64,000 bases of DNA from Candidatus Aminicenantes bacterium (GTDB lineage: Bacteria > Acidobacteriota > Aminicenantia > Aminicenantales > CAVYOD01). The DNA lies in the NCBI GenBank assembly GCA_963701305.1, contig OY969586.1:3863937-3927936 (forward strand). Reading direction: 5' to 3'. A program made the translations under genes and the position numbers. The notes beneath the pieces were generated by a model, which saw only the letters and a list, made by a program, of their open reading frames with translations, was not told where the DNA came from and did no database searches. Shown one piece after another: positions 1 through 31,132 of this stretch; the first letter of the stretch is position 1; each line of letters begins with the position of its first letter.

Positions 1-262
1 AGAAAGTCTTTTCATGGCGGAAGAGAACCGTTTCCTCTCCCACCTCGAGAGGAGCGGCTCCCCCGATTTTGACCAGCCGGATCGGCGGCTCACTGGCGGC
101 CCCCAGCGCAGCCTTGGCCTCCGCCGAGGCGAAGGGACAGGCGCTGAGCTCGGCTTTTTTCTGGGCCAGTTTCATGGCGAAGGCCATGCAGGTTGGGACC
201 CCGCAATCGCCGCAATTCGTTTTCGGGAGTAGCTTAAAAATCTCAAGTCCGGATAGGGCCAT
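1..262 (-). CDS. acsC: Corrinoid iron-sulfur protein large subunit (AcsC/CdhE), N-terminal fragment running off the left edge
   Basis: Absent from the ORF track because there is no stop inside the window. My translation of the minus strand from ATG 262-260 gives MALSGLEIFKLLPKTNCGDCGVPTCMAFAMKLAQKKAELSACPFASAEAKAALGAASEPPIRLVKIGGAAPLEVGEETVLFRHEKTF. This shows the N-terminal 4Fe-4S Cys motif typical of CFeSP large subunits. It starts 1 nt after the acsD stop. Confidence 0.8.
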   Translation of the reverse strand, partial: MALSGLEIFKLLPKTNCGDCGVPTCMAFAMKLAQKKAELSACPFASAEAKAALGAASEPPIRLVKIGGAAPLEVGEETVLFRHEKTF

Positions 263-263
263 C

Positions 264-1253
264 TCAGCTCTCCTGCTTGGAATCGAACATTTCCTTGATC
301 TTTTTTTTGACCTCATCAACCGCCCGGGGATGATAGAGGATGAGGAGGTCCGCTCCGGCGACGAGCAGAGTCATGGCCGTCGCGATTTCCCAATATGCGC
401 CCCTGCGTTTTTCCTCTCCCCAGTTCGGATAATCCTTTTCCGGGGCGCGGGCCTCTTTGACTCTAGCGCTCTCGTACCCGGGAGTAATGAGCATGGGGTG
501 GCAGAGCATCTTGTCCCCGGCCAGACCGTCGTTCCGGATGCGCTCCATGATCGAATAGGTATATTCCAGCCCGTAGCCGAGGGCACCCGTCAGCGGGTCC
601 ATGACGATCCGCTCCGGCGGGAAGTTCAGGTCAGCCAGAAGAATATTGAGTTGTTTGGCCATGTTGACATCGATCGGAGTCTGGGCGACGAGGCAATGAT
701 GATAAGCCATGCAGGCCGCGGCGATGGTTTTGTAGTTGTTCGTTTCGACATAGTTGATGAGGCAGTTCTCGCCGGCCGCCACTTCGCACACTTTCTTCAT
801 CACCTCATTGACCTTCTCGAAGTGACTGTGCCCGGAGATGATCAGGGGCACCTTGACGGCTGCGAGCACTTCTTTGACCACGTCGGCGGCTTCTTCCGCG
901 CTTCGATTGCCCTTTTCGGGATGGGTCCCTTCCAGGCGAATGCTGATGAGCTCGGCATCGAACTCCTCGACGCAGCGTTTGGCCATCTCGCCGGGCCGGT
1001 CCAGGACATCCTGGAAGAATTCGCGCAGAGAATCAGGAAACTTGGCCGGCGGTTTGTCAAAGACCTCCATGGCCACAAGCGGACGACGCGGGGGAAGGCT
1101 CTCGAAGAAGAGGTAGGGAAGCCCCGTGCTCCCGCCTATGGTCACAGGATGGGAACGGCTTCCGCCTTGTTCGGCGGTCGCGCCGATCGTCACTTCGACA
1201 ATCTTTCCTGGACTTTTTTCTTTTGGTATCTCAAACGTCATCATCTCCCTCAC
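264..1253 (-). CDS. acsD: Corrinoid iron-sulfur protein small subunit (AcsD/CdhD)
   Basis: 329-aa ORF lying between cooC and acsC, recognised at family level. The listed start is GTG 1253, overlapping the cooC stop (GTGA). ATG alternatives lie at 1244 and 1241. Confidence 0.8.
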   Translation of the reverse strand: MREMMTFEIPKEKSPGKIVEVTIGATAEQGGSRSHPVTIGGSTGLPYLFFESLPPRRPLVAMEVFDKPPAKFPDSLREFFQDVLDRPGEMAKRCVEEFDAELISIRLEGTHPEKGNRSAEEAADVVKEVLAAVKVPLIISGHSHFEKVNEVMKKVCEVAAGENCLINYVETNNYKTIAAACMAYHHCLVAQTPIDVNMAKQLNILLADLNFPPERIVMDPLTGALGYGLEYTYSIMERIRNDGLAGDKMLCHPMLITPGYESARVKEARAPEKDYPNWGEEKRRGAYWEIATAMTLLVAGADLLILYHPRAVDEVKKKIKEMFDSKQES

Positions 1254-2005
1254 TTCAAATCGAGTTTGATCATCATCTGGCTTAAGGCTTGATAGGCTGT
1301 TGAGTTGGGCGAGATTGACCAGATCGGAACCCCTTCTCGATCCATCTCCAGGAGCTTCTCATCCTCTGGGATCGCGGCCAAGAGCTCAAGCCCCTCGGCC
1401 TCGATCGTCTTTTTGAGGGCGGGGGATTGGGAAGGAGCGGCCCGGTTGAGGATGAGATATTTTTTTGTCACGCGGGTATCGAGCTCGGAAAGGAGGCGGC
1501 TGATTCTTCCCGCCGTGGCTATGCCCCTCGTCGAAGGGTCGGAAACGATGAACAAAAAATCTACGGTCTGTCGGGTCCGCCGGCTGAGGTGCTCCATCCC
1601 CGCCTCGTTATCTATCACGACGTAGGCGTAGTTCGCGGCCAGTGTCTGGAGCACATCCTGGAGCAGGTTGTTCGCATAGCAATAACAGCCGGGGCCTTCG
1701 GGCCGGCCCATGGCCAAGAGATCGAAGGGTTTGGTTTCCACCAGGCTCGACTGGATTTTGTATTCCAGGAACTGCTGCTTCGTCATCCCGCCCGGCAGGC
1801 TCGAGATCTTTGTCTTCATCTCCTCGCGAATGTTGCCGATCGTCTCTTTGAGCGGGACCCCCAGCAGATCGTTGAGGTTGACGTTCGAATCAGCGTCGAC
1901 CGCCAGGATCGGACGACCTTTGGTTTCGCTGAGCCAGCGGATGATCAGAGAGGCCAGGGTAGACTTCCCGGTCCCGCCTTTTCCCGAGATGGCCAAGGTG
2001 ATCAT
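1250..2005 (-). CDS. cooC: CooC/AcsF-type Ni-insertion ATPase
   Basis: N-terminal P-loop GKGGTGKST and the CxC metal motif GPGCYCYANN. Located between acsB and acsD. Confidence 0.85.
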   Translation of the reverse strand: MITLAISGKGGTGKSTLASLIIRWLSETKGRPILAVDADSNVNLNDLLGVPLKETIGNIREEMKTKISSLPGGMTKQQFLEYKIQSSLVETKPFDLLAMGRPEGPGCYCYANNLLQDVLQTLAANYAYVVIDNEAGMEHLSRRTRQTVDFLFIVSDPSTRGIATAGRISRLLSELDTRVTKKYLILNRAAPSQSPALKKTIEAEGLELLAAIPEDEKLLEMDREGVPIWSISPNSTAYQALSQMMIKLDLK

Positions 2006-2017
2006 TTTTGTGGCACC

Positions 2018-4222
2018 TCAAAACAGGGGGGGCATCGCCAGAACGGGATGGTTCATCCGCGAGATGTAGGCCAGGACCTCCTCCTCCGTCGCGGCCACGG
2101 TCTCATCGGCGATCATCTCGACAAAATTCGGAATTCCATCCCGTTCGCCGATTTTCTTGAGCACGGGAGCCAGTTCTTCCTTCAACTCTTTGTTCATCCA
2201 GACGATTCGCTTCGCTCCTCCCTCGGCGCTGATGAACTTCCTGCTCCCGATGTAAAGTTTGCTATGGCCAATGAACCCGGGCGTCTGGACGCCACCGCCG
2301 ACCGTCCCCGCCAAGGTCGAAAATTTCATCCCGGAAGGCGTCATTCCCGGAAAATTTCTGTAGACAATCATGATTCCGTTGGTCGAAGGCAGGATGCAGG
2401 AGATGCATTCAAAGCAGCCGCAAGAGGTCATCGGGTTTTCGATCATGCTGTAGGCGTTGAAGGCCTGGAGAGTCTTGTGAGAACTGCCATAGACAAATTC
2501 ATTGATGCCCTGCCACTGTCCCTTGACCGGGTCAATCGACGGCCCTTTCTTGAGCGGCTGGTTGGCTCCTGTCGGGTTGATCTGATAGGCCGCCTTTCCG
2601 TCCAGCCAGTTGTAGGCGCCGCAGAGGCCCGAGCGCTCGGGAGTGATGACGCAGACGTGGTTCGGCGCGAAGGACTGGCAGAGCGTACAAGAATAGAAGG
2701 TGTCCACGGCCTCGTCGGTCAGGCTGCCGATCCGTTCATCTCTGTGCCTGTAGACCTGGCGCGCCTGCTCGATGTGAGCCTGGACTTCGTTCTCGCGGGT
2801 GTAGATTTTGATCTGGACTTTGTCGAAGATCTTTCCGAACTCGGCGTGGAACTTGGCATGGATGATCGAGCCGAGGTGACTGAACTTGAAGCCCTTCTCT
2901 TTGGCCTCCTTGCTGATCCGGACCCAATTGATATCCCGCTGTCCCATGTGGAAGACACCGTGAGCCATGTTGATGAAGTCATGGATCCGCCTCTCCAGGA
3001 TCGGCTCGAAATCGGGCTGCATCTGGCGTCCGGCGACCTCGACCCAGACCCCGAGGGGAAGCTGACTTCCTTCTTCGACCTCGTCGATCTCGGGGCCGAT
3101 GACCTCGATCTTACCGTCCTCCACCTCTTCCAGACTTTTTGTTGTCAAGAACTCAAAACCGGGCTTGGATGTCCCGGCCAACTCGACGAACATCTCTTCC
3201 TTCCGGATCCGCTCGCCCTGAAAAGCAGGACCGAAGGGAACCGGGATCGGAACTTTGGTGACGGTGATCTTGAGGCCGCGGACCTCGATCGCCTTGGAGA
3301 CGATCTTATCATGCGGAACAGGCGAAACGACGTGCTCGTAGGTGCAGATGCCCGTCGGCAGAATACAATCGATGTCCGTGTCGGCTATGGTCGGAAAGCC
3401 GAAATTGATCGCCCCGGCCGCCTGGGCATGCTTTTCATCATCAACCGGGCCAAAAGCCAGGACAAAAGCAAAGATCCGATTTTTGTTATAGCGCAGGACC
3501 CTCTGGAAATCCCCCGGCTGGGCCCCGCCAAAGGAGAGGGCCGCCCTGGTCGAAAAGCCCAGGGCGTGGATAGTGGCCGTGACGTCATCGCCGAAGGGGA
3601 CGAGCCGGGTTTCCCAACCCATCTCGATCCCTTCTTCGGCCAGCTGCTGGGCCATTGATTTGCCATCCGTGGCCGCCGACATGAAAACGTAGAGATTTTT
3701 CTCCTGGAGCTCACGGGCGATCTTGACCGCGATCTCATTCGTCGGGCAGTAGCCGACGCAGGCGGCGAATCCGGGCGCCGTATTGTCGACGAACTCGATT
3801 CCCCTTTCCCGCATGATCACATCGTTGGCCGCTCCCAGCCAGAGGCGGCCGTCACGCGGATTCGTCTCGGGGAGGTAGGGGAGCGGGCTTTGGGTGTACT
3901 TGATCGCTTCGATGATCTCATCTGCGAAAAGCGTCGCCATGCCCGCGTCCATCGTATGTCCCAGGTAGGGAAGCCAGAGCCTGTCATCCGGGATCGGAGG
4001 GAGGAGCCTCTTGGCTTCCTCAAGGAGCTCCCTGAGTCCTCCCAGCGTTTCGATCTTCAGGCCGAGCATTCCATAGGAGATCGGGAGGTAGTAGCCCGTG
4101 TTGGGGAATTCCACTTTCGTCTGGGGGCCTTTTTCTTCCAGAGCCTTGAGCAGCTCTCCCTCGGCCCTGGTCACGAGCTTGTGGGCCCCGCGAATGGCTT
4201 TGGTGGCGATTATTTTCGACAT
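2018..4222 (-). CDS. acsB: Acetyl-CoA synthase (CO-methylating, A-cluster subunit)
   Basis: 734-aa ORF containing the Cys-Gly-Cys A-cluster region (TSCGCFECISC). Length and context are typical of bacterial AcsB. Confidence 0.93.
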   Translation of the reverse strand: MSKIIATKAIRGAHKLVTRAEGELLKALEEKGPQTKVEFPNTGYYLPISYGMLGLKIETLGGLRELLEEAKRLLPPIPDDRLWLPYLGHTMDAGMATLFADEIIEAIKYTQSPLPYLPETNPRDGRLWLGAANDVIMRERGIEFVDNTAPGFAACVGYCPTNEIAVKIARELQEKNLYVFMSAATDGKSMAQQLAEEGIEMGWETRLVPFGDDVTATIHALGFSTRAALSFGGAQPGDFQRVLRYNKNRIFAFVLAFGPVDDEKHAQAAGAINFGFPTIADTDIDCILPTGICTYEHVVSPVPHDKIVSKAIEVRGLKITVTKVPIPVPFGPAFQGERIRKEEMFVELAGTSKPGFEFLTTKSLEEVEDGKIEVIGPEIDEVEEGSQLPLGVWVEVAGRQMQPDFEPILERRIHDFINMAHGVFHMGQRDINWVRISKEAKEKGFKFSHLGSIIHAKFHAEFGKIFDKVQIKIYTRENEVQAHIEQARQVYRHRDERIGSLTDEAVDTFYSCTLCQSFAPNHVCVITPERSGLCGAYNWLDGKAAYQINPTGANQPLKKGPSIDPVKGQWQGINEFVYGSSHKTLQAFNAYSMIENPMTSCGCFECISCILPSTNGIMIVYRNFPGMTPSGMKFSTLAGTVGGGVQTPGFIGHSKLYIGSRKFISAEGGAKRIVWMNKELKEELAPVLKKIGERDGIPNFVEMIADETVAATEEEVLAYISRMNHPVLAMPPLF

Positions 4223-4225
4223 GGT

Positions 4226-6163
4226 TTAAACTTCCAGTTGCCGGCGCATTTCCATATCAAAGAGGACTCGCTCTTTGCCCTTGCCGATGCCCAGCTTTTC
4301 CCGTTTTTGATTGATGTGGTCGATGATCATCCCGGCCATCTTATGTGTGTCCGGCTCGGCCGCCCACATCCCGCCGAAAATATCCTTGAACTCTTCAAAA
4401 ATGTGGGCGCTGAAAACGGCGCTCCCGCGGACGGGGAGACCGATCCCGAAAACGGTGAAAACGCCGGAGGCGACAAAATACTGGCCGATGGCGATGGCCT
4501 TTTCGCTCATCCATTCCGGCGCCGCGCCGGCCACCGGGAGGTCGCTGATGTCTTTGCCCAATCCGCCGACTTTGACCATCTCGGTCAGAGCCATGAGCAG
4601 TCGGCTGTTGTCCACACAGGATCCCGAATGAAGGACGGGCGGCATCCCCACGGCTTTGCAGACTTCGGCCAGACCCGGGCCTGCATATTTCTCCGCCGAC
4701 TCGGGTGTCAGGAATCCGGCCTTGGCGCAGGCGATGGCCGAGCAACCGGTTTGAACGACCAGGATATCGTTGGCGATCAGCTCCTCCACCAAACTGACAT
4801 GGCACTGGTCGGGGATGACCTTGGGGTTCGAGCAGCCGACGACGCCCGCGACGCCTTTGATCCGGCCGTTAACGATGTTGTCATTCAGCGGGACATAGGA
4901 GCCGCGGAAACTCCCGCCCAGCATATACATGATAGCCTCATGGCTGAAACCGGCGACGAGGTCCATTTTTTTGTTAGGAATGTCTACCGGGCCCCGGTTG
5001 GCGAAGTTGTCGATCGCCTCCGTGATAATCGTCTTGGCCGCTTCGTAGGCTTTTTCGGGATGGAAATCGACGTGTCGGGCCCCCTCGATCCTGCCTTTTT
5101 CAGAGGTGGTGATGAGCAGGGTATGAAAATTCTTGCACAGCTGAGAAAGGGAAGGCATGATGCACTGAACATCAACAATCATGGCCTCCACTGCACCAGT
5201 GGCCACGGCGAGTTCCTGCTGGAGGACATTGCCGGCAATCGGCAGGCCGTGGCGGAGCAGGATCTCATTGGCCGTACAACAAATTCCGACAAGGTTAATG
5301 CCGGAGGCGCCCCTCGATTTGGCGAGATCGATCAGCTCTTTATCCTTGACCGCGACCGCCAGCATCTCAGAGAGAACCGGCTCGTGGCCGTGGACGACGA
5401 TGTTGACGTCGCTCTTGGAGATGACTCCCAGGTTGACCTGGCCGCGCACCGGTGAGGGCGTGCCAAAGAGGATATCCTGGAGCTCGGTCGCGATCATCGA
5501 CCCTCCCCAGCCGTCGGCCAGGGCCGTGCGGGCGCCCTGGAGCATGAGACTTCGGTGGTCCTGATCCACTCCCATGCTCGTCCGGTGCATCATCTCCACG
5601 ACCTCGCGGTCGATGCCGCGGGGGACGATGTCGAGGGCGCGCCAGAGGGCCTGTCTTGTTTCGGGAGCCCGTTTGATGAAGGCAATCTCTCCCTCCTGCT
5701 GACCAAATGTGGCCAGGGCCCTGCGGGCGACCTCGAGGGCAAGATCCTCTTTCGATTTGTTCTCCGTCGGCAGGTCAAAAATCTGCGCCACCCGCCTGAG
5801 CTTCTGGACATCCCGGATGGCGTAGCCTGCCCCGGGGTGCTGAGCGGCCAGGGCAAGCGTCCGGGCGACCTCGCGGCCGTGGTCGGAGTGAGCCGCTGTT
5901 CCGGCCGCGATCATCCGGCAAAAATTCCGGGCGACGATCACCTCCGCCGTGGCGCCACAAACGCCTTTTTGAGGCTTCTTGCCGGTCGGATTGATCCGGC
6001 AAGGCCCCATATAACAGTGACGACAGCAGAGGCCCTGCTCGCCAAAGCCGCAATGAGGCTTCTGCTGTTCGGCCCGGTCAAAGACGGTTTCGATATTCTT
6101 CTTTTCTAAACCGTCAACAGCGGGCGTGTGCGGGCTCTCCGTTTTGATTTTGTCGCTCATCAT
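4226..6163 (-). CDS. cooS: Ni-dependent carbon monoxide dehydrogenase catalytic subunit
   Basis: 645-aa ORF with an N-terminal Cys-rich cluster region (HCGFGEQGLCCRHCYMGPCRI). Its stop lies 3 nt before the acsB start. Confidence 0.93.
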   Translation of the reverse strand: MMSDKIKTESPHTPAVDGLEKKNIETVFDRAEQQKPHCGFGEQGLCCRHCYMGPCRINPTGKKPQKGVCGATAEVIVARNFCRMIAAGTAAHSDHGREVARTLALAAQHPGAGYAIRDVQKLRRVAQIFDLPTENKSKEDLALEVARRALATFGQQEGEIAFIKRAPETRQALWRALDIVPRGIDREVVEMMHRTSMGVDQDHRSLMLQGARTALADGWGGSMIATELQDILFGTPSPVRGQVNLGVISKSDVNIVVHGHEPVLSEMLAVAVKDKELIDLAKSRGASGINLVGICCTANEILLRHGLPIAGNVLQQELAVATGAVEAMIVDVQCIMPSLSQLCKNFHTLLITTSEKGRIEGARHVDFHPEKAYEAAKTIITEAIDNFANRGPVDIPNKKMDLVAGFSHEAIMYMLGGSFRGSYVPLNDNIVNGRIKGVAGVVGCSNPKVIPDQCHVSLVEELIANDILVVQTGCSAIACAKAGFLTPESAEKYAGPGLAEVCKAVGMPPVLHSGSCVDNSRLLMALTEMVKVGGLGKDISDLPVAGAAPEWMSEKAIAIGQYFVASGVFTVFGIGLPVRGSAVFSAHIFEEFKDIFGGMWAAEPDTHKMAGMIIDHINQKREKLGIGKGKERVLFDMEMRRQLEV

Positions 6164-6211
6164 TCACTCTCTTCTTACGAATTCTAAAATATTTCCTGTC
6201 TCAGATAACAG

Positions 6212-7258
6212 TTAGACACGCAAGCGCCGGCTGACTTCGCAGAGTTCGGAAAACACTTTTTCGGACAACTCCACGGGGAGCGATCCCGTCCCGCAGCTCG
6301 GGGTGACCAGGCATTGTTCCCAGATCAAGCTTTTATCGACTCCCTTGGAGGAGAGATTGTTGACCACGGTGTTCAGCTTCAAGACAAGACTTTCCGCCGA
6401 CTCCTGGCCTATCTTGGCGGACGTGGGCACGACCCCCCAGGCCAGGATTCCGCCCCGCTTCAGATACTCCCCGACCTTGTCTGCGTAGTAGGCAATCGTC
6501 TCGCCGAATTCAAAGGCGTCGAAGCTGATAATGTCGACGCCGGCGTCTATCAGGATCGTCCATTCCGTGTTGCCGCAGCAATGGACCCCGGCCAATCCCT
6601 CTTCCTTATGGACGGCCTCGATGACCTCATGGAGGTATTGGACGACGTCGGGCCTCTGGACGCTGACATAGGTCGATGACCCGAAAGCCGAGAGGATGGG
6701 TTCATCGATGAAACAGATCTGGGGGCGGCCCAGGAATTTAAACTTGTTGAGAAGCCAGCGGGCTTTCATCTCGGTCCCCTTGACGATGACATCCCGGAGA
6801 ACCTCGTTATAATAGACGGCCCGCTTGTTCTCATCCACCCGGCCCAGACCAATGGTGATGGGGCCCGTGACCTGGTTTTTGAATAACTTCAGGCAAGAGG
6901 GCTTCTGGGTGCTCAGCTTCTTTTCCATGGCATAGAGGCCCCGGCTGAAATCCGGGGAGATCCGGAAGTGCTCCAGGTTCTCCGTCATATAATTCTCGTA
7001 GAACTTTTCTAGCTCCGAGGTCATATCTTTGCTCGTGTCAAAGTACATCCGCTGCGTGGCCCGGTCGAGAACGACGCCGGGGAGTCCTTCGCAGTATTGG
7101 ATCTCCATACTCTCCCTGAAATCCGTGTGCGGCAGCTGGGGCCAGAAGGGTATTTCGGGAATGCTGTTCAAGACGACATCGCAGGCGGCCGCGGGGTCCG
7201 TGTGGGGCAGGCTCCCGATGGCCGTCGCCAGGCATTGAGGATGAAACGTCATGGGCAT
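6212..7258 (-). CDS. Short cobalamin-independent methionine synthase catalytic-domain (MetE core) family methyltransferase
   Basis: 348-aa ORF. It carries MetE C-terminal-domain-like motifs: FIDEPILSA (compare IDEPAL), VHCCGNT (HxC zinc ligands) and TPSCGTG (distal Cys ligand). It is about half the length of full MetE. Confidence 0.65.
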   Translation of the reverse strand: MPMTFHPQCLATAIGSLPHTDPAAACDVVLNSIPEIPFWPQLPHTDFRESMEIQYCEGLPGVVLDRATQRMYFDTSKDMTSELEKFYENYMTENLEHFRISPDFSRGLYAMEKKLSTQKPSCLKLFKNQVTGPITIGLGRVDENKRAVYYNEVLRDVIVKGTEMKARWLLNKFKFLGRPQICFIDEPILSAFGSSTYVSVQRPDVVQYLHEVIEAVHKEEGLAGVHCCGNTEWTILIDAGVDIISFDAFEFGETIAYYADKVGEYLKRGGILAWGVVPTSAKIGQESAESLVLKLNTVVNNLSSKGVDKSLIWEQCLVTPSCGTGSLPVELSEKVFSELCEVSRRLRV

Positions 7259-7333
7259 ACCTCTCTTCCAGATTCTTGAGAGTCCAGTTTACTCCGGGGA
7301 GTCCCTCGGTTATAGGACCAACGCCGCGATAAT

Positions 7334-7372
7334 TTGTAAAATTATGCTAAATTTGCGGGCAAAAAATAGAGG
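7334..7372. promoter_or_regulatory. Copy 1 of a ~40-nt conserved intergenic element (upstream of the MetE-core gene)
   Basis: TTGTAAAATTATGCTAAATTTGCGGGCAAAAAATAGAGG aligns with 10649-10688 at 33 identical positions in 41 alignment columns (hand alignment). Confidence 0.45.
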
Positions 7373-7388
7373 GACCATACCAGAATAT

Positions 7389-8195
7389 CTAAACGGGGTG
7401 GCCGTTTCTTGGAGTCGCGCCGGCCCGGTCGATGAGCGCCCGGGTGATGGCCAGGAATTCGCGCCGCAGGGGCTCGTCCAAAATGTCGATGAGCGTCTGG
7501 AACTTGAGGTCGGCGTCCCTGATCATCTCGCTGTAAGGCAGGAGACCGATGATCAGTCCGGGAACGAACTGGGAGACGATCCAATCTCGCTGCTCCCTGT
7601 TCTGAATTTTGTTGCCGATGACCGCAAAGGAATGAAGGCCGATCTCATCAGCCAATCTGAAGATGGTCCGGGCCGTGGCCACGCTTCGCTCGCCCGGTTC
7701 GACCACGATGACCAGGGTGTCTATCGCCCGGGCCGTGCCGCGGCCCAGATGCTCAATCCCGGCCTCCATGTCCACGACCACGGCCTCGTCCCGGTTGAGC
7801 AGGATTTCAGAGAGAAGGCTGCGGAGGAGGACATTCTCGGGACAGGCACAACCTTGGCCTCCCTTCCTCACCGCACCCATGACCAAGAGTTTTATCCCCC
7901 GGAAACGGATCGAGAGCCCCTCCGGGATATCGTCTACCCGTGGGTTGATCTTGAAGAGCTGCCCGAACTCCTTCGGGTTGGCCCCGGTCCTATCCCTGAC
8001 AAGGTCCCGCTGTGCCGAAACGGGAATGATCCGAGATGCTTCCGCCGCTGGAATCCCGAGGGCGGAAGCCAGGTTGGCGTCGGGGTCGGCGTCCACGGCC
8101 AGAACTTTGTAGCCTGCGGCGGCCAGGTAATGGGACAGAAGACCGGCGATCGTCGATTTCCCCGTTCCGCCTTTTCCAGAGATCGCGATTTTCAT
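7389..8195 (-). CDS. cooC: CooC-family Ni-insertion ATPase (second copy)
   Basis: P-loop GKGGTGKST and CxC motif GGQGCACPEN. ATG 8195-8193 shares one nucleotide with the upstream RACo stop (TGATG). The track's start at 8198 is a TTG one codon earlier. Confidence 0.8.
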   Translation of the reverse strand: MKIAISGKGGTGKSTIAGLLSHYLAAAGYKVLAVDADPDANLASALGIPAAEASRIIPVSAQRDLVRDRTGANPKEFGQLFKINPRVDDIPEGLSIRFRGIKLLVMGAVRKGGQGCACPENVLLRSLLSEILLNRDEAVVVDMEAGIEHLGRGTARAIDTLVIVVEPGERSVATARTIFRLADEIGLHSFAVIGNKIQNREQRDWIVSQFVPGLIIGLLPYSEMIRDADLKFQTLIDILDEPLRREFLAITRALIDRAGATPRNGHPV

Positions 8196-9961
8196 CAAGG
8201 ATCCGCCTCTGGAAATTCGAGGGATTCGATAAACTTTTTCTGGAATTCCGGGTCTGAAGCCAGGGAGACGTGGGAGACCGACTTGATCATCTTTTTGAGG
8301 AACGTCCGGCTCGGAAGGGAGAGCAGCAACTCCTTGGCTCCGGACAGAGAAGCGTTCCCGATAAAGACGATTTTCTTCCGAGCGATCGCAGGCAGGAGAC
8401 CGATGGCTTGGCTGTTTCGGACATTAAGATAGTTCCCAAACGCGCCGGCGATCAATACTCCATCGAGGTCTTCTGGGCTCAGGCCGCCCTTCTCCAGCAT
8501 CATCTTGACACCGGTCTTAACCGCAGCGATGGCCAGCTGAACTTCCCTGACATCTTTCTGGGTGATGGAAACTCCTTCTGCAACCGGGAGAATCCTTGAT
8601 TCGGGGACGATCTTGCCTTGAGGAGTGATATCTCCCTTCTGTTTGAACAGGGCGAGAAGGTCGATCAGGCCCGTGCCACAAATCCCGATGGGAGCGTGGT
8701 CAGCAATTGTGAAAACTTCAAGCTCCTTTCCGAATTGCGCCTTATAAATCGCGCCGGGAAGGGCCAGCATCCCTGCGCTGATATTCATTCCTTCGAACGC
8801 CGGCCCGGCCGCGGTCGATGTCGCCCACAGGGATTTTCCTTTCTTGAGAACGATCTCGCCGTTCGTGCCCAGGTCGACAAAAATAAAATTCCCCGGCCGT
8901 CGGGCCAGGTCCGAGGCCAGGATCCCGGCAGAGATATCCCCGCCGACAAAGCTCTTTATATTGGGGACGATGAAAGCCTTGGCCTGTTCGTTAAGCTCTA
9001 GTCCCAGCTCCGCAGCCCGGAGTTCGTCCAGGTTGGAAAAAACTGCGTTAAAAGGAGCAACGGCAAGGGTTTTAACCGGAAGCCCCAAGAGAAGATGGTT
9101 CATCGTTGTGTTCCCGGCCACGACGACCTCGTAAAGGCTGCTCTCGGGGATATGGTTTCGCTCTTCCAGCTCGTGAATGAGACCGTTGAGTTGCCGGATA
9201 ATGCTCAGCCGCAAATCCTCCAAGTTCTGATCGCTCAGAAAAGCATGCGAAATCCTGGACACAACGTCCGAGCCGAACCTGGACTGGCTGTTGAGCGCTG
9301 TGGCCAGATCGGCCGTTGCGCCCGTATGAAGGTCCACAAGTTCGACCACCACGGTCGTGGTTCCCAGGTCCACGGCGATCCCATAATTTTTGTCTGTCGT
9401 ATCGCCGGCCTCGAGAGCGAGGATCTCCTTATCATCGAAAATGACCGCGGTCAGCCGGCCCTGAGTTTCTTGGAGAAGTGCCGGGAGCTTCTTGAGAAGC
9501 GGGAGAGACACCCTCAGCCCTTTTCGCTTGAGCCCCTCTTCGACCAGTTCGAGGGCGGACGCCGGATTCAATATCCGCGGCGAGGGCACCTCGAGGAAGT
9601 ATTTTTTGACCGGCGGATTCACGACGACCGACATCCGCTGGCCCGTCGTGAGGATATTCGTCTCCCTGAACAAAGACCCGCGGGGAATCTTGACGGCGAG
9701 GCTTCCATGAATCTTGTAGAGGCACGAGAGTCTTGAACGGGCCGGCAGTTTTTTCTGCCGGATCAAGAGCGCTTCTTTCTCTGTGGGGGGCGGGATCTCT
9801 CCGCTGACGATTTCGACAAAACACTTGCCGCAGACTCCCCGTTTGCGGCAGTAAGTGCTCAGCGGAATTCCGGCTTCCTCGATTTTCTCGGCGAGACTAT
9901 CTCCCTCACAAACAGGAAGCCTCAGGGCGGGTGAGACAATTTCAAGACTGAGTTTCTTCAT
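8195..9961 (-). CDS. Reductive activator of corrinoid proteins (RACo/AcsV-like; 2Fe-2S ferredoxin domain plus ASKHA ATPase domain)
   Basis: 588-aa ORF. The N-terminal plant-type ferredoxin Cys pattern is CRKRGVCGKCFVE...C. The long C-terminal region has actin-fold-like motifs (AVDLGTTTV, VDLGTNGE). Confidence 0.75.
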   Translation of the reverse strand: MKKLSLEIVSPALRLPVCEGDSLAEKIEEAGIPLSTYCRKRGVCGKCFVEIVSGEIPPPTEKEALLIRQKKLPARSRLSCLYKIHGSLAVKIPRGSLFRETNILTTGQRMSVVVNPPVKKYFLEVPSPRILNPASALELVEEGLKRKGLRVSLPLLKKLPALLQETQGRLTAVIFDDKEILALEAGDTTDKNYGIAVDLGTTTVVVELVDLHTGATADLATALNSQSRFGSDVVSRISHAFLSDQNLEDLRLSIIRQLNGLIHELEERNHIPESSLYEVVVAGNTTMNHLLLGLPVKTLAVAPFNAVFSNLDELRAAELGLELNEQAKAFIVPNIKSFVGGDISAGILASDLARRPGNFIFVDLGTNGEIVLKKGKSLWATSTAAGPAFEGMNISAGMLALPGAIYKAQFGKELEVFTIADHAPIGICGTGLIDLLALFKQKGDITPQGKIVPESRILPVAEGVSITQKDVREVQLAIAAVKTGVKMMLEKGGLSPEDLDGVLIAGAFGNYLNVRNSQAIGLLPAIARKKIVFIGNASLSGAKELLLSLPSRTFLKKMIKSVSHVSLASDPEFQKKFIESLEFPEADP

Positions 9962-10593
9962 CGGAGCAGGCTCCCGACCAGGCTCACGGCCGAGGCCGCG
10001 TCCGGGGCGTAGCCATCGGCCTTGATTTCGTCAGCATAGGATTTGGTAACAGGGGCCCCGCCGATGATAACCTTGACCTTCTTCCTCAGCCGGGCCGCCT
10101 CCAGGGCATCGATCACTTCTCTCATGTAACTCATCGTCGTGGTGAGGAGCGCCGAGAGGGCGACGACGTCGGGGTGTTCTTTTTTGGCTGAACTCAAGAC
10201 GCGCTCTTTGGAGACATCGACGCCGATGTCCAGGACCTCGTAACCCGCGCCTTCCAGCATCATTCCGACGATCTTTTTCCCGATATCATGGAGGTCTCCC
10301 TTGACTGTGGCCAGGACCACCTTGCCCTTGAATCGGAAGCCGGTCTGGGTCAAGGCCGGCCTCAATATTTCCAGGCCGGCGTTCATCGCCCGGGTGGCGA
10401 TGAGAACCTCGGGGATAAAAACCTCGTTCCTCTTGAATTTCTGGCCGATGGTGTTCATCCCCAGGACTAGGCCGACGTTTAAGACCCGATCCGGCGGGAC
10501 GGACGATACCAGAGCCCGGCGGACGAGTTCCTTGACGGCGGCCGAATCTCCATTTTCAACAGCAGAGGCGATGTCCTGGAGGAGCTTGATCAT
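9958..10593 (-). CDS. Small cobalamin-binding corrinoid protein (MtbC/MttC/MtgC-like)
   Basis: 211-aa ORF with an N-terminal helical cap domain and the B12-binding DxHxxG motif (GDLHDIGKK). Overlaps the RACo start by 4 nt (ATGA). Confidence 0.85.
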   Translation of the reverse strand: MIKLLQDIASAVENGDSAAVKELVRRALVSSVPPDRVLNVGLVLGMNTIGQKFKRNEVFIPEVLIATRAMNAGLEILRPALTQTGFRFKGKVVLATVKGDLHDIGKKIVGMMLEGAGYEVLDIGVDVSKERVLSSAKKEHPDVVALSALLTTTMSYMREVIDALEAARLRKKVKVIIGGAPVTKSYADEIKADGYAPDAASAVSLVGSLLR

Positions 10594-10648
10594 CGTGCAT
10601 ACTCTACCATATTTGCTCCGTCAAGGGGTAGCTTTTTTTACCCATCTC

Positions 10649-10688
10649 TTGTATAATTTGGCTAGATTTGCAGGGCAAAAAGAAGCGG
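10649..10688. promoter_or_regulatory. Copy 2 of the ~40-nt conserved element (divergent region between the corrinoid protein and the PocR-AraC gene)
   Basis: TTGTATAATTTGGCTAGATTTGCAGGGCAAAAAGAAGCGG. It contains TATAAT on the plus strand. On the minus strand it reads TTGCCC-N17-TATACA. Confidence 0.45.
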
Positions 10689-10693
10689 TCAAG

Positions 10694-11959
10694 ATGCAGC
10701 TCAAGACTTACATCTCCAAAGAAAAGTTCACACGGCTCGCCGGAGAATACCAGGCAAAAACAGGGCTGCCCCTGATTCTGGTCGACCCGGAGGGGAAAAT
10801 CGTGCGCAACGGAAGGAAGTGCGCTTTTTGCCGGAGATATGTTTCCGGCGGCAAAACCCAGCTTCTCCTGGCCTGCCGGGAGACCCTGGCGAAGGCGGTC
10901 CGAGAGTCCCACCGCTGGGGGGAGGGATACATCACGACCTGTCCCTTGGGTCTTATTCTCTTTGCAGTGCCGATCGTCTTCCATAAGAAGCTCATCGGCG
11001 GTTTCCTGAGCGGCTTCGCTATCTTTCCCGAGATGAGGAAGGATTTCCGGGAAGAAGTCCAGGAAAATCTGAAGAGGCTCTCGGGGTCGTCCCGGGCCCT
11101 CCAGGTTAATAGATTTGACGTCAAATCCTTCTCGCTCAAGAAAGTCAAAGGCTACGTCACCGACCTCCTAGCGCTGACCGGCTCCGCCCAGATCAACGAC
11201 CTGAGCTTTTTGAAGAAACGGAACGAACAGTATGTCCAGCAATACAAGATCGCCAATTTTCTCGAAGATCTCAAGAGAGACAACCCCGACATCTCCCGGA
11301 AGATCCTAGATAAGCAGGATGAGATCATCCGCAAGGTCAAGCTGGGAGACTCCAGCGGGGCCCGCGAGATCCTGAACGAATTCCTGGGCTCGATCTTCTT
11401 CGAGAGCGGCATGAATTTCGATGTCATCAAGGTCCGGATCATCGAACTCATCGTGATGATCTCCCGGGCGGCCATCGAAGCCGGGGCCGGAGCGGAGGAA
11501 CTGCTCGGTCTGAACTATTCTTATCTCACCGAGCTCAACAAAGTGACCGACCTCGAGGAGCTCCTTGACCAGGTCAAGTCGATCCTCGAAAATTTCATGG
11601 ACAAGGTCGCAACGATCAAGGACAAGAAGAGAAGCGTCCGACTCCAGAAAATGCGGGATTACATCAACCGGAATTTTACCCGCAAGATATCCGCCCGAGA
11701 TGTCGCCCGTGAGGCTGAGCTGAGTGTCGGACGCGCCCTCCACTTGTTCCGCGAAGGAACAGGACTCTCCCTTACGTCCTACATCAACAAGATGAAGATC
11801 GAGTACGCCCGCTACCTGCTTCTCAACACCGAGATCGCGCTGGCCGACCTGGCCGACGAGCTTGGTTATTTCGACCAGAGCCACTTCACCAAGAATTTCA
11901 AGCGACTCGAGAAGATCACCCCTTCGCATTTTCGCCTAAAGTTTAAGACGGAACTCTGA
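10694..11959 (+). CDS. AraC-family transcription regulator with N-terminal PocR sensory domain
   Basis: The protein from ATG 10694 begins MQLKTYISKEKFTRLAGEYQAKTGLPLILVDPEGK...CAFC, which is PocR-like. The C-terminus is an AraC-type HTH (DYINRNFTRKISARDVA...GYFDQSHFTKNFKR). The track ORF starting at 10301 overlaps the corrinoid gene and is an over-extension. Confidence 0.8.
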   Translation: MQLKTYISKEKFTRLAGEYQAKTGLPLILVDPEGKIVRNGRKCAFCRRYVSGGKTQLLLACRETLAKAVRESHRWGEGYITTCPLGLILFAVPIVFHKKLIGGFLSGFAIFPEMRKDFREEVQENLKRLSGSSRALQVNRFDVKSFSLKKVKGYVTDLLALTGSAQINDLSFLKKRNEQYVQQYKIANFLEDLKRDNPDISRKILDKQDEIIRKVKLGDSSGAREILNEFLGSIFFESGMNFDVIKVRIIELIVMISRAAIEAGAGAEELLGLNYSYLTELNKVTDLEELLDQVKSILENFMDKVATIKDKKRSVRLQKMRDYINRNFTRKISARDVAREAELSVGRALHLFREGTGLSLTSYINKMKIEYARYLLLNTEIALADLADELGYFDQSHFTKNFKRLEKITPSHFRLKFKTEL

Positions 11960-11988
11960 CGACGAGATGACGAGAGAGACGTCCCTGT

Positions 11989-12017
11989 TTGACAATTCAT
12001 GAAGATTGGTATAAACA
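11989..12017 (+). promoter_or_regulatory. Possible sigma70-type promoter of the D-aminoacylase operon
   Basis: TTGACA at 11989-11994 in the TTGACAATT context. TATAAA lies at 12010-12015, giving a short 15-nt spacing. Confidence 0.25.
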
Positions 12018-12098
12018 AAAATACTAACATGGAGATAAGGCCGTCCCCGGGCTCGGAAAGCGGGACGATTTTTCGAACTGCCGGAGGAGAAAAGAGAA

Positions 12099-13799
12099 AT
12101 GACCAAAGCGATGAACCGTCGGGATTTTATAAAAACTTCCGTCCAGGCCGGTGTCTTTCTGGGCGTCGGCGGAAAGGCCTTCGGGTCGGGCAAACCGAAC
12201 GCTCCGCCTGCCTTTGATATGATCATCAAGGGCGGAACGGTGGTCGATGGCCTGACCGAAAACGCCCTCAAGGTCGACCTCGGAATCATCGGAGAACAGA
12301 TTCAGGCCCTGGGCGATCTTCGCGGCGCCATCGGAAAACTTATGATCGATGCAACCGGCAGAGTCGTTTCACCCGGGTTCATCGACATCCACGCCCACTC
12401 GGACGCCGCCCAGGTCCTCCTCAACCCGAAGTGCGAAAGCAAAATTCGGCAGGGCGTGACGACCGAGCTCACCGGAAACTGCGGAGGCTCTTCATTTCCC
12501 TTGAAGCCGGAAGCCTCTGATGAAGAAAAGGAGTTCTTGGCAAAAGTCAATCTGACCAGAGATTGGCAAAACCTGGAGGGATATTTTGCCCGTGTCAAAA
12601 AGGGAGGAGTCGCTTTCAATTACGCGACTCTTGTCGGGCAGGGGACCATCCGGAGCCTGATCATGAATGAGGACCGAAGAAAGCCCACGGCCGACGAGTT
12701 GGACAGGATGAAAAAGTTTGTCGCCGAAGCCATGGAGCAGGGAGCCGTGGGCATTTCCAGTGGTTTGGAATATACCCCAAGCGGATTCGCTTCGACCGAG
12801 GAGATGGTCGAACTCTGCCGGGTGGCTGCGCCATACGGCGGATTCTATGCGACCCACGTCCGGAGTGAAGACCAGGCCGTCGTCGAAGCGATCGCCGAGT
12901 CCATCCACATCGCCGAGTCCGCCGGGCTGCCGCTCCAAATCTCCCATTTTAAATCCTGCGGGAGGACGAATTGGTGGAAAGTGCCCATGCTCATCGACCT
13001 TGTCGAGAAGGCCCAACAGAAAGGCCTGAAGGTAACCGCCGACCGCTATCCGTATACGGCCTACAGCACCGGCCTTTCTATAAATTTCCCCCGCTGGGCG
13101 ATGGACGGCGGAAGCGAAGCCCTCGTTAAGAGGCTAAAAGACCCGGAGCTGAGACGGAAGATGCGGGATGAGACCATGGAAAAGATGGAAGGGACCTCCT
13201 GGGAGGACATTCTGATCGTTGACGCCAATAACGAATCCGATAAAAAATTTATCGGCAAGCGGATCAGCGAGGCCGCGGCCGAGATGCATCAGGATCCGTA
13301 TGAATTTTCCTGCGACCTGATCGTCGAAGAGGGTGGCAATGTCGACATTGTCGGGTTCGGGATGAACGACGAGACCACGGAACTCGTCCTCCGACACCCG
13401 CTCGTCATGCTCTGTTCGGACGGGTTCGCTCTCGCCCCTTACGGCCCCCTCCATCGCGGCATGCCCCATCCTCGGAACTACGGGACCTTCCCTCGTTTTC
13501 TCAGGATGTATGTCCGGGAGAAAAAGCTCGTATCTCTCCCTGTTGCCATTAAGAAAATGACTTCTATGCCGGCGGCCAAGCTCGGGCTTAAAGACCGGGG
13601 GGCGATCAAAAAAGGCAACTTTGCCGACATCGTCGTCTTCGACCCCTTGACGATCGCGGACAAAGCGACCTACACCGAGCCAGAGCAATATCCGGTGGGG
13701 ATCGATTATGTGATCGTCAATGGCAAAGTCGTGATCGACCACGGCAACCACACCGGGGTCCTGCCGGGAAAGATCCTTTACGGCCCCGGAAAAAAATGA
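12099..13799 (+). CDS. N-acyl-D-amino-acid deacylase (D-aminoacylase) family amidohydrolase with Tat-type signal
   Basis: 566 aa. The N-terminus MTKAMNRRDFIKTSVQAGVFLGVGG is a twin-arginine motif. Metal motif GFIDIHAHSD. SD sequence GGAGGAG lies upstream. Confidence 0.8.
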   Translation: MTKAMNRRDFIKTSVQAGVFLGVGGKAFGSGKPNAPPAFDMIIKGGTVVDGLTENALKVDLGIIGEQIQALGDLRGAIGKLMIDATGRVVSPGFIDIHAHSDAAQVLLNPKCESKIRQGVTTELTGNCGGSSFPLKPEASDEEKEFLAKVNLTRDWQNLEGYFARVKKGGVAFNYATLVGQGTIRSLIMNEDRRKPTADELDRMKKFVAEAMEQGAVGISSGLEYTPSGFASTEEMVELCRVAAPYGGFYATHVRSEDQAVVEAIAESIHIAESAGLPLQISHFKSCGRTNWWKVPMLIDLVEKAQQKGLKVTADRYPYTAYSTGLSINFPRWAMDGGSEALVKRLKDPELRRKMRDETMEKMEGTSWEDILIVDANNESDKKFIGKRISEAAAEMHQDPYEFSCDLIVEEGGNVDIVGFGMNDETTELVLRHPLVMLCSDGFALAPYGPLHRGMPHPRNYGTFPRFLRMYVREKKLVSLPVAIKKMTSMPAAKLGLKDRGAIKKGNFADIVVFDPLTIADKATYTEPEQYPVGIDYVIVNGKVVIDHGNHTGVLPGKILYGPGKK

Positions 13800-28088: not shown

Positions 28089-29540
28089 TTACTGTTTTTC
28101 AATTGATCGTATGATCCGCTCAAACTCAGCCTCCAATTTGGGATCGAGTGGCTCGGGCTTATGTTTCTCGAGTATGCTTTTTGCCCTATCCCGGGCCCAG
28201 CTGCGGGCGTCGTCCTTCTTCATTTCCCAGGCGCTATAAGGCCGCCGATCCATCAAGCTGTTGAGCCAGAGTTCTCTCGTATGCTTCCTGGTATGTTGGT
28301 GGGTCAGGAAGCTCCCTCCCGGCCCGACATCGCGGATGGCCTGCAGGGCGAGCCTCTCCTTGTCAACCCGGATCCCCTCCATCATCTTGGCTACGATGCC
28401 GAATATCTCGCAATCCATGATCATCTGCTCGAATGACCAGATCGTACTCCCGTTGAGCTGTCCCACGCCGGCGAGCATGTCTGCCATCACGGCCGAGGCC
28501 ATAAAAGTGGAAAGCGAGTTCTCGACACCAGCTTGCCAATTAGGCTCTTTAGCGCCGGTGGCAAACGAGCCCATGGACAGGGGAACATTGTAGAAGTCGG
28601 CCAGCTCATTGCCTGCCGCCGCGAAGAGAAAGTCCTCCGGCCCTCCTCCAGTGTAGGCGCCGCTCCGAAGGTCCATCACTGACTGAGCGGCGGCATAGAA
28701 GACGGGAGCGCCCGGATAGGCCAGCTCGATCATCGCCAAGGCGCTCAACACCTCCGCGTTGCCGACCACAAGGTTTCCTGCCATTGTCGCCGGCGCAGAG
28801 GAGGCGCAGGAGGCCATGGTCATGAATCCGACCGGGAGGCCGGCCTCGGCACCGGCCAGGGCCGCCTCCAGGCTCCCGGCGTCCTGAGCAAGTGGGGAAA
28901 CGGAGCACTCCATGATCGAGAGCAATGGCCGGAGCCGCAGGGCTTCGCGGCTGCCCGCCAGGCACACCGCCATCTCCACCGCACCCAGGGCTTCTCTTTC
29001 ATCGTAGACGCTTTCTGTTTGGACGTGTTTCGTCGAATTCTTCCAGATGGCCGAGAGCTCGTAAAGCCCACGAGTTTCGGGAGGGGCGTCCTGGGCCGAG
29101 ACCGGGACCCAATGAAGGGCCACTTCATCCAGATAGTCAGCTACTCTGGCGATGTCGGCCACATCCTTGAGACAAGAACGCCGCCTCTCGCCTGTGACGA
29201 GATCCAAAACTTCCACACCGCACCCGTCGGTTCCGACGTAGACATGATTCCCGTCCAGTGCGAGGTCGAGGCCGGGGTCACGCGCGGCGAGAACATAAGT
29301 GGGCGGAGCTTTTTTCAGCGCTTCTTCAATAAGCCGCCCAGGCACTTTGACGATCATTGAGCTCCTGTCCACCTTGGCGCCGGCCTCTTCCCAAATCTTC
29401 ATCGCTTTGATAGAGGGAAACCTCACGCCAACCGCTTCGATCGTCTCGAGCGTTGCCAGGTGGATTTTCCGGATGTCTCCGGGGCTTAGAACACTCAGCT
29501 TAAGACGAGGGTTTGAAATCGATTTTATTTTTCCTGGCAT
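28089..29540 (-). CDS. MttB-superfamily (trimethylamine methyltransferase family) protein without pyrrolysine
   Basis: Uninterrupted ORF of typical MttB length with no in-frame TAG. ATG 29540 (MPGKIKSISNPRLKLSVLSPGDIRKIH...) follows GAAGGAA. The track start at 29579 is 13 codons upstream. Confidence 0.8.
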   Translation of the reverse strand: MPGKIKSISNPRLKLSVLSPGDIRKIHLATLETIEAVGVRFPSIKAMKIWEEAGAKVDRSSMIVKVPGRLIEEALKKAPPTYVLAARDPGLDLALDGNHVYVGTDGCGVEVLDLVTGERRRSCLKDVADIARVADYLDEVALHWVPVSAQDAPPETRGLYELSAIWKNSTKHVQTESVYDEREALGAVEMAVCLAGSREALRLRPLLSIMECSVSPLAQDAGSLEAALAGAEAGLPVGFMTMASCASSAPATMAGNLVVGNAEVLSALAMIELAYPGAPVFYAAAQSVMDLRSGAYTGGGPEDFLFAAAGNELADFYNVPLSMGSFATGAKEPNWQAGVENSLSTFMASAVMADMLAGVGQLNGSTIWSFEQMIMDCEIFGIVAKMMEGIRVDKERLALQAIRDVGPGGSFLTHQHTRKHTRELWLNSLMDRRPYSAWEMKKDDARSWARDRAKSILEKHKPEPLDPKLEAEFERIIRSIEKQ

Positions 29541-29613
29541 CGTCGTTCCTTCTCTACCCCTAGATTTCTGATATATCACTTAATTCTGCATTGGAAATAA
29601 CCAGGCATCCTCG

Positions 29614-29663: not shown

Positions 29664-29695
29664 CAGGCGCAGATTTTAATCACCATGATTTTCGC

Positions 29696-31117: not shown

Positions 31118-31132
31118 GATTTTATTTACCTT

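Follow-up and report, generated by a model that had tools for sequence, protein, structure and literature searches.

A putative MesB-type core methionine synthase encoded inside a bacterial acetyl-CoA synthase operon of Candidatus Aminicenantes

For Dehalococcoides, a short enzyme of the cobalamin-independent methionine synthase (MetE) type has been proposed to take its methyl group from the corrinoid iron-sulfur protein (CFeSP) and not from folate (Deobald 2020, PMC7005905). The proposal has been generalised to the MesB family, which is found where a genome also encodes AcsC and AcsD, the large and small CFeSP subunits (Price 2021, PMC7857596). A predicted relative is described here. It is a 348-amino-acid protein encoded within an acetyl-CoA synthase/carbon monoxide dehydrogenase (ACS/CODH) operon, in a 64,000-nucleotide stretch of DNA (the window; contig OY969586.1, C1:3863937-3927936) from an uncultured Candidatus Aminicenantes bacterium of sediment (GCA_963701305.1). 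The window belongs to a single 4.07-Mb contig, which made the genes past its left edge readable.

The Dehalococcoides mccartyi core-MetE is cbdbA481, also known as DET0516 (Deobald 2020, PMC7005905; Price 2021, PMC7857596). Its ligands are His215, Cys217, Asp236 and Cys312 (PMC7005905), or 214/216/235/311 in the numbering of PMC7857596. MesB has been described from Dehalococcoidia, Thermoplasmata and Methanomassiliicoccales lineages, and its operational criterion is a phmmer score of at least 130 bits to DET0516 (Price 2021, PMC7857596). The physiological methyl donor of MesB-type enzymes is only predicted, and the authors of the family call for biochemical tests (PMC7857596).

Fold and catalytic residues of the 348-amino-acid protein

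We regard it as fairly probable that the 348-amino-acid protein is a MesB-type zinc enzyme, which would transfer a methyl group from a Co(III)-methyl corrinoid protein to homocysteine and give methionine without methyl-folate. A direct coupling of a methyl-corrinoid to homocysteine had been suggested for this locus in a first-pass annotation of the DNA; homology and genomic context support it, and the proposal itself is already published (PMC7005905, PMC7857596). The locus is a further clean example of that idea and not a new idea. The substrate, the direction of methyl flow and the donor corrinoid protein are what we infer from such homology and context.

The protein has no match in Pfam, PF01717 (Meth_synt_2) included, even at E ≤ 10, none in NCBIfam, and none by phmmer in the PDB; PF01717 also gave no match in six-frame searches of 29 genomes carrying homologues. 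More than 6000 homologues exist, some called 'methionine synthase II' by the Joint Genome Institute (JGI), and the family has 2277 clusters at 50% identity in the representative library. The AlphaFold2 model, made with 35 homologues in the alignment, has a mean predicted local distance difference test (pLDDT) value of 92.6 and a predicted template-modelling (pTM) score of 0.92. When this model was compared with the PDB by Foldseek, the top 15 matches were all cobalamin-independent methionine synthase (MetE), with probability 1.0 and E down to 2.6e-8. A 173-member family profile aligns by hhalign with the catalytic (C-terminal) half of MetE over 294 columns (93.6% probability, E 2e-7). Four motifs of the family are paired there with motifs of MetE: IGSLP with IGSFP, IDEP with VDEA, HCCGN with HMCYSN and PSCG with PDCG. 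The MetE likeness of the protein is visible only by fold and profile-profile comparison; the earlier description of a MetE-core-like enzyme stands at that level and has no counterpart among the Pfam and NCBIfam models. The model predicts a single MetE-type (beta/alpha)8 barrel of 348 amino acids, in agreement with the MesB description of about 340 amino acids without an N-terminal folate-binding domain.

Two other assignments were considered. Matches of the family profile to designed pentatricopeptide-repeat proteins in the PDB were spurious summed hits and were set aside as an artefact. An identity as a UroD/MtaA-type MT2 enzyme was rejected, as no such structure is among the significant fold matches and the MetE homocysteine-binding motifs are present.

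The sequence HCC is found at residues 226-228 and a further cysteine at 322. The zinc ligands are predicted to be H226, C228, D247 and C322, with a spacing of His-x-Cys (+2), Asp +19 and Cys +75. Over 173 family sequences of roughly 34-94% identity, H226, D247 and C322 are invariant (173/173) and C228 is present in 171/173; the apparent zinc ligands noted before thus hold up when the family is properly aligned. S16 (161/173) and D185 (166/173) are predicted to contact homocysteine; they are the equivalents of MetE Ser433 and Asp599 and align with the MetE IGSFP and VDEA motifs. A protein named 'methionine synthase [Dehalococcoidia bacterium]' at NCBI is 40.6% identical (281 bits) and a Thermoplasmata protein 41% identical (307 bits); these bit scores refer to NCBI-named Dehalococcoidia, Anaerolineae and Thermoplasmata proxies and not to the characterised DET0516. 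Identity to Methanomassiliicoccales proteins is 38-39%.

The operon, its relatives and the genome around it

The operon occupies window positions 1-10593. On the minus strand the order is B12 protein, RACo-type activase, cooC, an intergenic gap, the 348-amino-acid gene, cooS, acsB, cooC, acsD and acsC, and every gene of this order, as read in the first-pass annotation, was confirmed in the open reading frame (ORF) listing and by Pfam and NCBIfam scans. The gap had been given as 131 nucleotides and is in fact 130. The bacterial CODH/ACS and CFeSP gene set is complete, with a CooS-type CODH, AcsB with its N-terminal domain, AcsC, AcsD and two CbiA-type ATPases; TIGR01702, NF040764, NF003195 and NF003376 are above cut-offs or are strong matches.

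The acsC gene extends past the left window edge to genome position 3862861, for a total of about 445-464 amino acids. Next on that strand come the gene for an AcsV-type RACo (NF040756, 660 bits), which is 30% identical to the RACo inside the window, and then that for a stand-alone PF02574 homocysteine S-methyltransferase of about 292-305 amino acids. The score of the latter is 223.9 bits, and its sequence includes GANC and GGCCG (a Cys/Cys-Cys zinc motif). The next gene encodes an outer-membrane barrel protein on the opposite strand and sets the left boundary of the operon. The first-pass annotation had allowed for an acsE gene just past the left edge, downstream of acsC; the genes read there rule this out. 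No operon gene, including those past the left edge, matches AcsE or its pterin-binding barrel (PF00809; NF040758 or PRK07535), and the reported lack of a pterin-binding AcsE/MetH-type ORF in the 10.6 kb was borne out by the Pterin_bind models. Both findings that were to speak against the assignment were looked for: acsC is not followed by acsE, and the 348-amino-acid protein has its zinc ligands and groups with MetE-type enzymes.

Genome-wide, there are two Pterin_bind genes. One is folP; the other encodes a 267-amino-acid PRK07535-like methyltransferase of the methyl-tetrahydrofolate (methyl-THF):corrinoid type, which is AcsE/MtgA-like, adjoins an MttB gene and lies at genome positions 3815493-3816296, about 48 kb left of the window. 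The 267-amino-acid protein scores 219 bits with PRK07535 and only 80.6 bits with the dedicated CODH/ACS methyltransferase model, which has a cut-off of 370. Since these are the only pterin-binding genes, the genome is, as far as its genes tell, one without MetH. No methylene-THF reductase (MTHFR) was found in the genome and no PF01717 MetE in its six-frame search; formyl-THF synthetase is encoded. The genome has one ACS/CODH, one 348-amino-acid gene, one PF02574 gene, two RACo genes, about seven small corrinoid proteins and 15 MttB-family genes. Because it is without methylene-THF reductase, MetE and MetH, its main methionine synthase candidate is the 348-amino-acid enzyme, which may do this work by itself or jointly with the PF02574 protein encoded at the operon end.

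Homologues with 48-74% identity were collected from one genome per species, and this gave 80 loci. The labels of these metagenome-assembled genomes (MAGs) include Aminicenantes/Acidobacteriota, Planctomycetes, Lentisphaerae/Victivallales, Kiritimatiellales, Verrucomicrobia, Bacillota, Synergistaceae, Spirochaetales, SAR324, Sumerlaeota, Zhuqueibacterota and others, and represent more than ten bacterial phyla. One or more of cooS, acsB, acsC or acsD adjoin the homologue in 66/80 loci, and of the 14 loci without adjoining ACS genes, 12 have less than 4 kb of flank on the ACS side. A PF02574 gene is present in 45/80 loci, and outside the Aminicenantes it is immediately upstream of the homologue in most such loci; the small B12 protein is found in 22/80. 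The cooC copy between acsB and acsD is common to all related operons. No pterin methyltransferase homologue was found in any of the 80 loci, even at E 1e-3. Public gene calls for a Verrucomicrobiota-labelled locus (L090) and a Synergistaceae locus (L091) display the same gene set. A FastTree phylogeny places the ACS-embedded homologues in a single clade, with a Shimodaira-Hasegawa (SH)-like support of 99.

Some loci show variations on this arrangement. In the Verrucomicrobiota-labelled and Synergistaceae loci (L090:14910-18356 and L091:10455-13910), acsB and acsD are called as one product of 1148-1151 amino acids (CODH_A_N, CdhC, ACS_CODH_B_C and CdhD). Locus L007 (CP070825.1, 1898925-1919959) has, at about 8350-12230, a second, partial operon copy consisting of a RACo C-terminal fragment, an intact cooC, an intact homologue of the 348-amino-acid gene and a cooS N-terminal fragment; the same genome carries the full operon (L012).

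The surroundings of the AcsE-less operon vary among the 29 other genomes with the operon that were compared. Stand-alone AcsE-like ORFs are present in most Aminicenantes genomes and in Bacillota- and Spirochaetales-labelled ones, always away from the operon. In most other operon genomes the pterin-binding domains are found only within long MetH-type ORFs; these include the Verrucomicrobiota-/Kiritimatiellales-labelled G018, G023 and G024 and about a dozen more, which have both MetF and MetH. In two Planctomycetes genomes, a long ORF of 817-825 amino acids has a pterin domain together with a weak match to MTHFR. In Planctomycetes GWF2_41_51, an 816-amino-acid MTHFR-DUF5981-pterin-binding fusion is encoded at L098:2126-4576 (minus strand), and the ACS operon there is without acsE; DUF5981 is the C-terminal domain of MTHFR, and the fusion may unite the functions of a methylene-THF reductase and an AcsE-like methyltransferase. 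A statement that AcsE is absent from all operon genomes is thus too strong and was abandoned, given the stand-alone AcsE-like genes and this fusion.

To the MesB literature the locus adds three features that are found neither in PMC7005905 or PMC7857596 nor elsewhere in the full-text literature searched: the position of the gene inside a complete bacterial CODH/ACS operon; the PF02574 enzyme, small corrinoid protein and second activase as constant companions; and the spread of the arrangement over many phyla. The genes for the enzyme, for the two candidate corrinoid donors and the two activases, and for acetyl-CoA synthase are together in one block of the size of a transcription unit. It offers a defined protein set for reconstitution, from a genome with no MetF, MetE or MetH to confuse the picture. 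In addition, because this type of operon is without a folate methyltransferase in 80/80 loci, metagenomic calls of a 'Wood-Ljungdahl pathway' from cooS and acsB alone may misread a module that is methionine-linked or otherwise independent of folate.

Methyl donors and competing explanations

Two methyl donors encoded in the operon can be proposed for the 348-amino-acid enzyme: the CFeSP (AcsC/AcsD) and the 211-amino-acid MtgC-like protein. The CFeSP would be methylated by ACS through acetyl-CoA cleavage, with the CO oxidised by CooS, or alternatively by the single AcsE/MtgA-like enzyme encoded 48 kb away. The MtgC-like protein could receive its methyl group from some of the 15 MttB-family methyltransferases. 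For the reduction of Co(II) to Co(I), each corrinoid protein would have a RACo activase of its own. The PF02574 protein, small B12 protein and RACo may together represent a MetH-like synthase split into separate proteins.

The 211-amino-acid protein has the sequence DLHDIG (DxHxxG) at residues 100-105, and its best NCBIfam matches are MtgC models. Paralogues elsewhere in the genome are 53-57% identical to it, and the 57% copy directly adjoins an MttB gene. An MttB homologue 18 kb from the operon had been put forward as a methyl source. The 15 MttB genes make such a supply plausible in general, but nothing ties the homologue at 28089-29579 to the operon. That gene forms a group (28089-33272, minus strand) with genes for an amino-acid permease and two S58 (DmpA-type) peptidases, and neither a corrinoid protein nor an activase is encoded alongside. 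Outside the window, two MttB-family frames of this genome, G000:C1:3242391-3243851 and 2982333-2983799, have one in-frame TGA each, and the first of them adjoins a small corrinoid-protein gene. One MttB of the relative G004 has an in-frame TAG. The in-frame stops could be recoded codons, pseudogenes or sequencing errors. A 381-amino-acid ORF, also outside the window (G000:C1:533422-533772), has a C-terminal part like the corrinoid-binding end of AcsC/CdhD, with 30% identity to AcsC residues 337-460, and has homologues in G002, G003 and G004.

The closed Aminicenantes chromosome G002 bears on the choice of donor. No AcsB domain was found in it, and CdhD-family genes are present only as fragments. 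Its decayed operon (L097; G002:C1:4184001-4200000, about 5500-12900 of the locus) has the order RACo, cooC, a piece of the 348-amino-acid gene, a piece of acsB, cooC, pieces of acsD and acsC, an AcsV-type RACo and the PF02574 gene. The RACo, both cooC, the AcsV-type RACo and the PF02574 gene are intact. The remnants encode residues 3-51 of the 348-amino-acid protein (49 residues), 677-734 of AcsB (58), 3-56 of AcsD and 310-463 of AcsC, which implies two internal deletions. Elsewhere in G002, among unrelated flanking genes, there is an intact bicistron of a 216-amino-acid B12 protein and a 348-amino-acid homologue with all catalytic residues. MTHFR, MetE and an AcsE-like gene were not found in G002; three MttB genes are present. 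Other Aminicenantes show the same association, as in most loci with upstream flank the operon includes a small B12-protein gene shortly before the homologue; in some only RACo and cooC stand between the two genes, and in several the two directly adjoin.

Because the pair of B12 protein and 348-amino-acid protein outlives the decay of ACS in G002, the small corrinoid protein is a credible donor alongside CFeSP. Its retention suggests that the enzyme can work with a small corrinoid protein alone, which would be at least a sufficient donor. The first-pass annotation had named the CFeSP or the small B12 protein as the corrinoid; both are still candidates, and the ACS-less G002 speaks for the small B12 protein. 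G002 further suggests that the two homocysteine enzymes have a use that outlasts ACS, and methionine synthesis would be the most economical one.

Several points weigh against a methionine synthase of the MesB type. Two homocysteine-type methyltransferases in one operon look redundant. An Rfam search of the operon found no methionine- or B12-linked riboswitch, SAM (S-adenosylmethionine) riboswitches included. The family is too distant from PF01717 for detection by Pfam, NCBIfam or PDB sequence searches, its bit scores relate to the proxies named above, and the ACS-embedded clade is separate from the Dehalococcoidia/Anaerolineae/Thermoplasmata group in the FastTree phylogeny. Outside the Aminicenantes, most operon genomes have MetF and many have a full-length MetH, and a MesB-like enzyme need not be the only methionine synthase there. 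For homologues in genomes of this kind, the MesB paper itself cautions that the function may be a different one (PMC7857596).

Another explanation is that the operon is an ordinary carbonyl branch with AcsE supplied in trans, a reading we hold unlikely. A normal CODH/ACS/CFeSP unit would then be fed with methyl-THF by the 267-amino-acid pterin methyltransferase. This one protein would fill two roles, those of MtgA (corrinoid to THF) and AcsE (THF to CFeSP), and so bring betaine or methylamine methyl groups to acetyl-CoA, and the 348-amino-acid enzyme would skim a small methyl share for methionine or use only the small B12 protein. The PRK07535-like gene (219 bits) does stand beside an MttB gene, in a genome with 15 MttB genes and about 7 small corrinoid proteins. 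Since there is no MTHFR, methyl-THF would have no oxidative exit and ACS would be its only sink, and G002 shows that the 348-amino-acid enzyme can dispense with CFeSP. However, the pterin gene is 48 kb off, and its counterparts in relatives are separated from the operon by about 1.7 Mb or belong to a different contig; the 267-amino-acid product reaches only 80.6 bits against the cut-off of 370 of the CODH/ACS methyltransferase model. The embedding of the 348-amino-acid gene between cooC and cooS across phyla is also left unexplained by a supply in trans. An improbable, bolder explanation is a homocysteine/methionine relay in place of AcsE, in which methionine instead of methyl-THF would be the methyl carrier that links methyl-corrinoid proteins to CFeSP. 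Methionine would be made by the PF02574 enzyme from small methyl-corrinoid proteins, or by MetH from methyl-THF; the 348-amino-acid enzyme, working in reverse, would methylate Co(I)-CFeSP from methionine, and ACS would then make acetyl-CoA, or the two roles might be swapped. It is conceivable because most non-Aminicenantes hosts do not need a MesB-like enzyme as their only methionine synthase. Consistent with it, 0/80 related operons have a pterin methyltransferase; G018, G023, G024 and about a dozen further genomes confine their pterin domains to MetH-type ORFs and have MetF and MetH; and the loci repeatedly combine a pair of homocysteine-type enzymes with two corrinoid proteins and two activases. 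Methylation of Co(I) by a thioether has a precedent in the methylthiol:coenzyme M methyltransferase MtsA, and rough free energies leave the overall route from methionine to acetyl-CoA possible. The step from methionine to Co(I) is nevertheless strongly uphill, and we know of no report of it for MetE- or MetH-type enzymes. The present genome has one AcsE/MtgA-like gene, the Planctomycetes operon genomes have the MTHFR-DUF5981-pterin-binding fusion as a possible AcsE, and Aminicenantes and Bacillota operon genomes have stand-alone AcsE-like genes elsewhere, all of which counts against a relay. G002 keeps both homocysteine enzymes after the loss of ACS, and biosynthesis fits this better.

A catabolic role appears very improbable. 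The 348-amino-acid enzyme would then be a methylthiol methyltransferase that, by itself or jointly with the PF02574 protein, takes the methyl group from methionine, S-methylcysteine, S-methylmethionine or a similar S-methyl compound and loads the corrinoid for energy or carbon. Its embedding with ACS and not with methionine or SAM genes would suit such a role, as would the divergent regulator, which is of the PocR/AraC small-molecule sensor type, and the SAM riboswitch not found in the operon. The conserved Ser and Asp, which bind the homocysteine carboxylate and amino groups in MetE, fit homocysteine or methionine and are silent on direction. Thermodynamics disfavour methionine as a methyl donor, and beyond the 348-amino-acid and PF02574 proteins the genome has no other methionine synthase candidate. 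Methionine synthesis from a methyl-corrinoid by a MesB-type enzyme is the reading preferred here.

Gene arrangement and comparison with described systems

The features of the operon and the divergent gene beside it are listed in Table 1. The two cooC-type ATPases flank the cooS-acsB part of the operon and the 348-amino-acid gene. The 130-nucleotide gap may contain an internal promoter; a consensus scan of the gap made no minus-strand promoter or terminator call, and the gap has no Rfam match.

Table 1. Features of the ACS/CODH operon region, in window coordinates
Feature	Position	Strand	Evidence or remarks
acsC, 5' part (large CFeSP subunit, N-terminal Fe-S domain)	2..319	-	PF04060, NF003195
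acsD (small CFeSP subunit, CdhD family)	264..1253	-	PF03599; NF003376 396.8 bits, above cut-off
cooC/acsF-type nickel-insertion ATPase, copy 1	1250..2005	-	CbiA/MinD-type P-loop
acsB (acetyl-CoA synthase, bacterial type with N-terminal domain)	2018..4222	-	NF040764 1052.9 bits; PF18537, PF03598, PF19436
cooS (Ni-CODH catalytic subunit)	4226..6163	-	TIGR01702 665 bits; PF03063
348-amino-acid MesB-type core methionine synthase (predicted methylcorrinoid:homocysteine S-methyltransferase)	6212..7258	-	Fold, profile-profile alignment, conserved residues
Intergenic gap, 130 nucleotides	7259..7388	-	AT-rich stretch and GGAAGAGAGG ribosome-binding site before the 348-amino-acid gene
cooC-type ATPase, copy 2	7389..8198	-	CbiA/NifH-like P-loop; 38% identity to copy 1
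RACo-type corrinoid-protein reductive activase, 588 amino acids (2Fe-2S domain and ASKHA ATPase)	8195..9961	-	PF00111, PF17650, PF17651, PF14574
211-amino-acid MtgC-like corrinoid protein (B12-binding cap and Rossmann domain)	9958..10593	-	PF02607, PF02310; NF047996 229.9 bits
PocR-sensor/AraC-type regulator, divergent	10301..11959	+	PF10114, PF12833, PF00165

As listed, the regulator ORF overlaps the B12 gene, and its true start is therefore probably to be sought downstream of 10594. A PocR/AraC regulator is also divergent to the B12-protein gene in the Verrucomicrobiota-labelled locus (L090:4114-5340, minus strand), which hints that the operon is under shared small-molecule control in both loci. 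The riboswitch search of six related loci had as its sole result an AdoCbl-II riboswitch beside B12-uptake genes. It is at L078:3990-4062 (minus strand), and the homocysteine methyltransferase genes follow about 6 kb downstream; the matching region of L090, a near-identical locus with annotation, carries TonB-dependent receptor and DUF4465 genes.

Dehalococcoides MesB and the present protein have in common a single MetE-type barrel of about 345 amino acids without the folate-binding half, a His-x-Cys...Asp...Cys site (spacing +2/+19/+75 here and +2/+19/+76 there), and conserved Ser and Asp homocysteine contacts. Both hosts have AcsB, AcsC and AcsD but are without MetF, MetE and MetH. The genes differ in location, since the one described here is inside the ACS operon between cooC and cooS, whereas that of Dehalococcoides is with SAM-cycle genes (PMC7005905). 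The present genome differs further in having CODH, many MttB genes and one AcsE/MtgA-like gene elsewhere, and an MtgC-like corrinoid protein, a second RACo and the PF02574 enzyme are co-encoded with the 348-amino-acid protein. MetE and MesA have Glu at +22 and Cys at +61, in contrast to Asp at +19 and Cys at +75 in the 348-amino-acid protein; MesC has +19 and +89. In the mesB-acsC-acsD operons of some methanogens (PMC7857596) a core methionine synthase is likewise encoded with both CFeSP subunits, but here the setting is a bacterial-type CODH/ACS operon with cooS, acsB, two cooC and two activases.

Comparison can also be made with corrinoid-dependent methyltransferase systems. A split MetH would resemble the present gene set in its stand-alone PF02574 module, stand-alone DxHxxG B12 protein and separate pterin-binding methyltransferase in the genome. 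The differences are that the pterin module is 48 kb away beside MttB, that there is no MTHFR to supply methyl-THF, and that reactivation would be by an ATP-dependent RACo instead of a SAM-binding domain. With the MttB-family/MtgC/MtgA systems of quaternary-amine demethylation, the genome shares the MtgC-like 211-amino-acid protein, 15 MttB homologues, an MtgA/AcsE-like gene and a RamA/RACo-type activase; in contrast to those systems, a homocysteine-type methyltransferase accompanies the corrinoid protein and activase, and not a pterin-binding MT2. Lastly, the 348-amino-acid gene occupies the place in the acs cluster that is expected for a methyltransferase serving CFeSP, as AcsE (MeTr) does, but its product is a MetE-type zinc barrel without a pterin site, and its predicted partner is homocysteine instead of THF.

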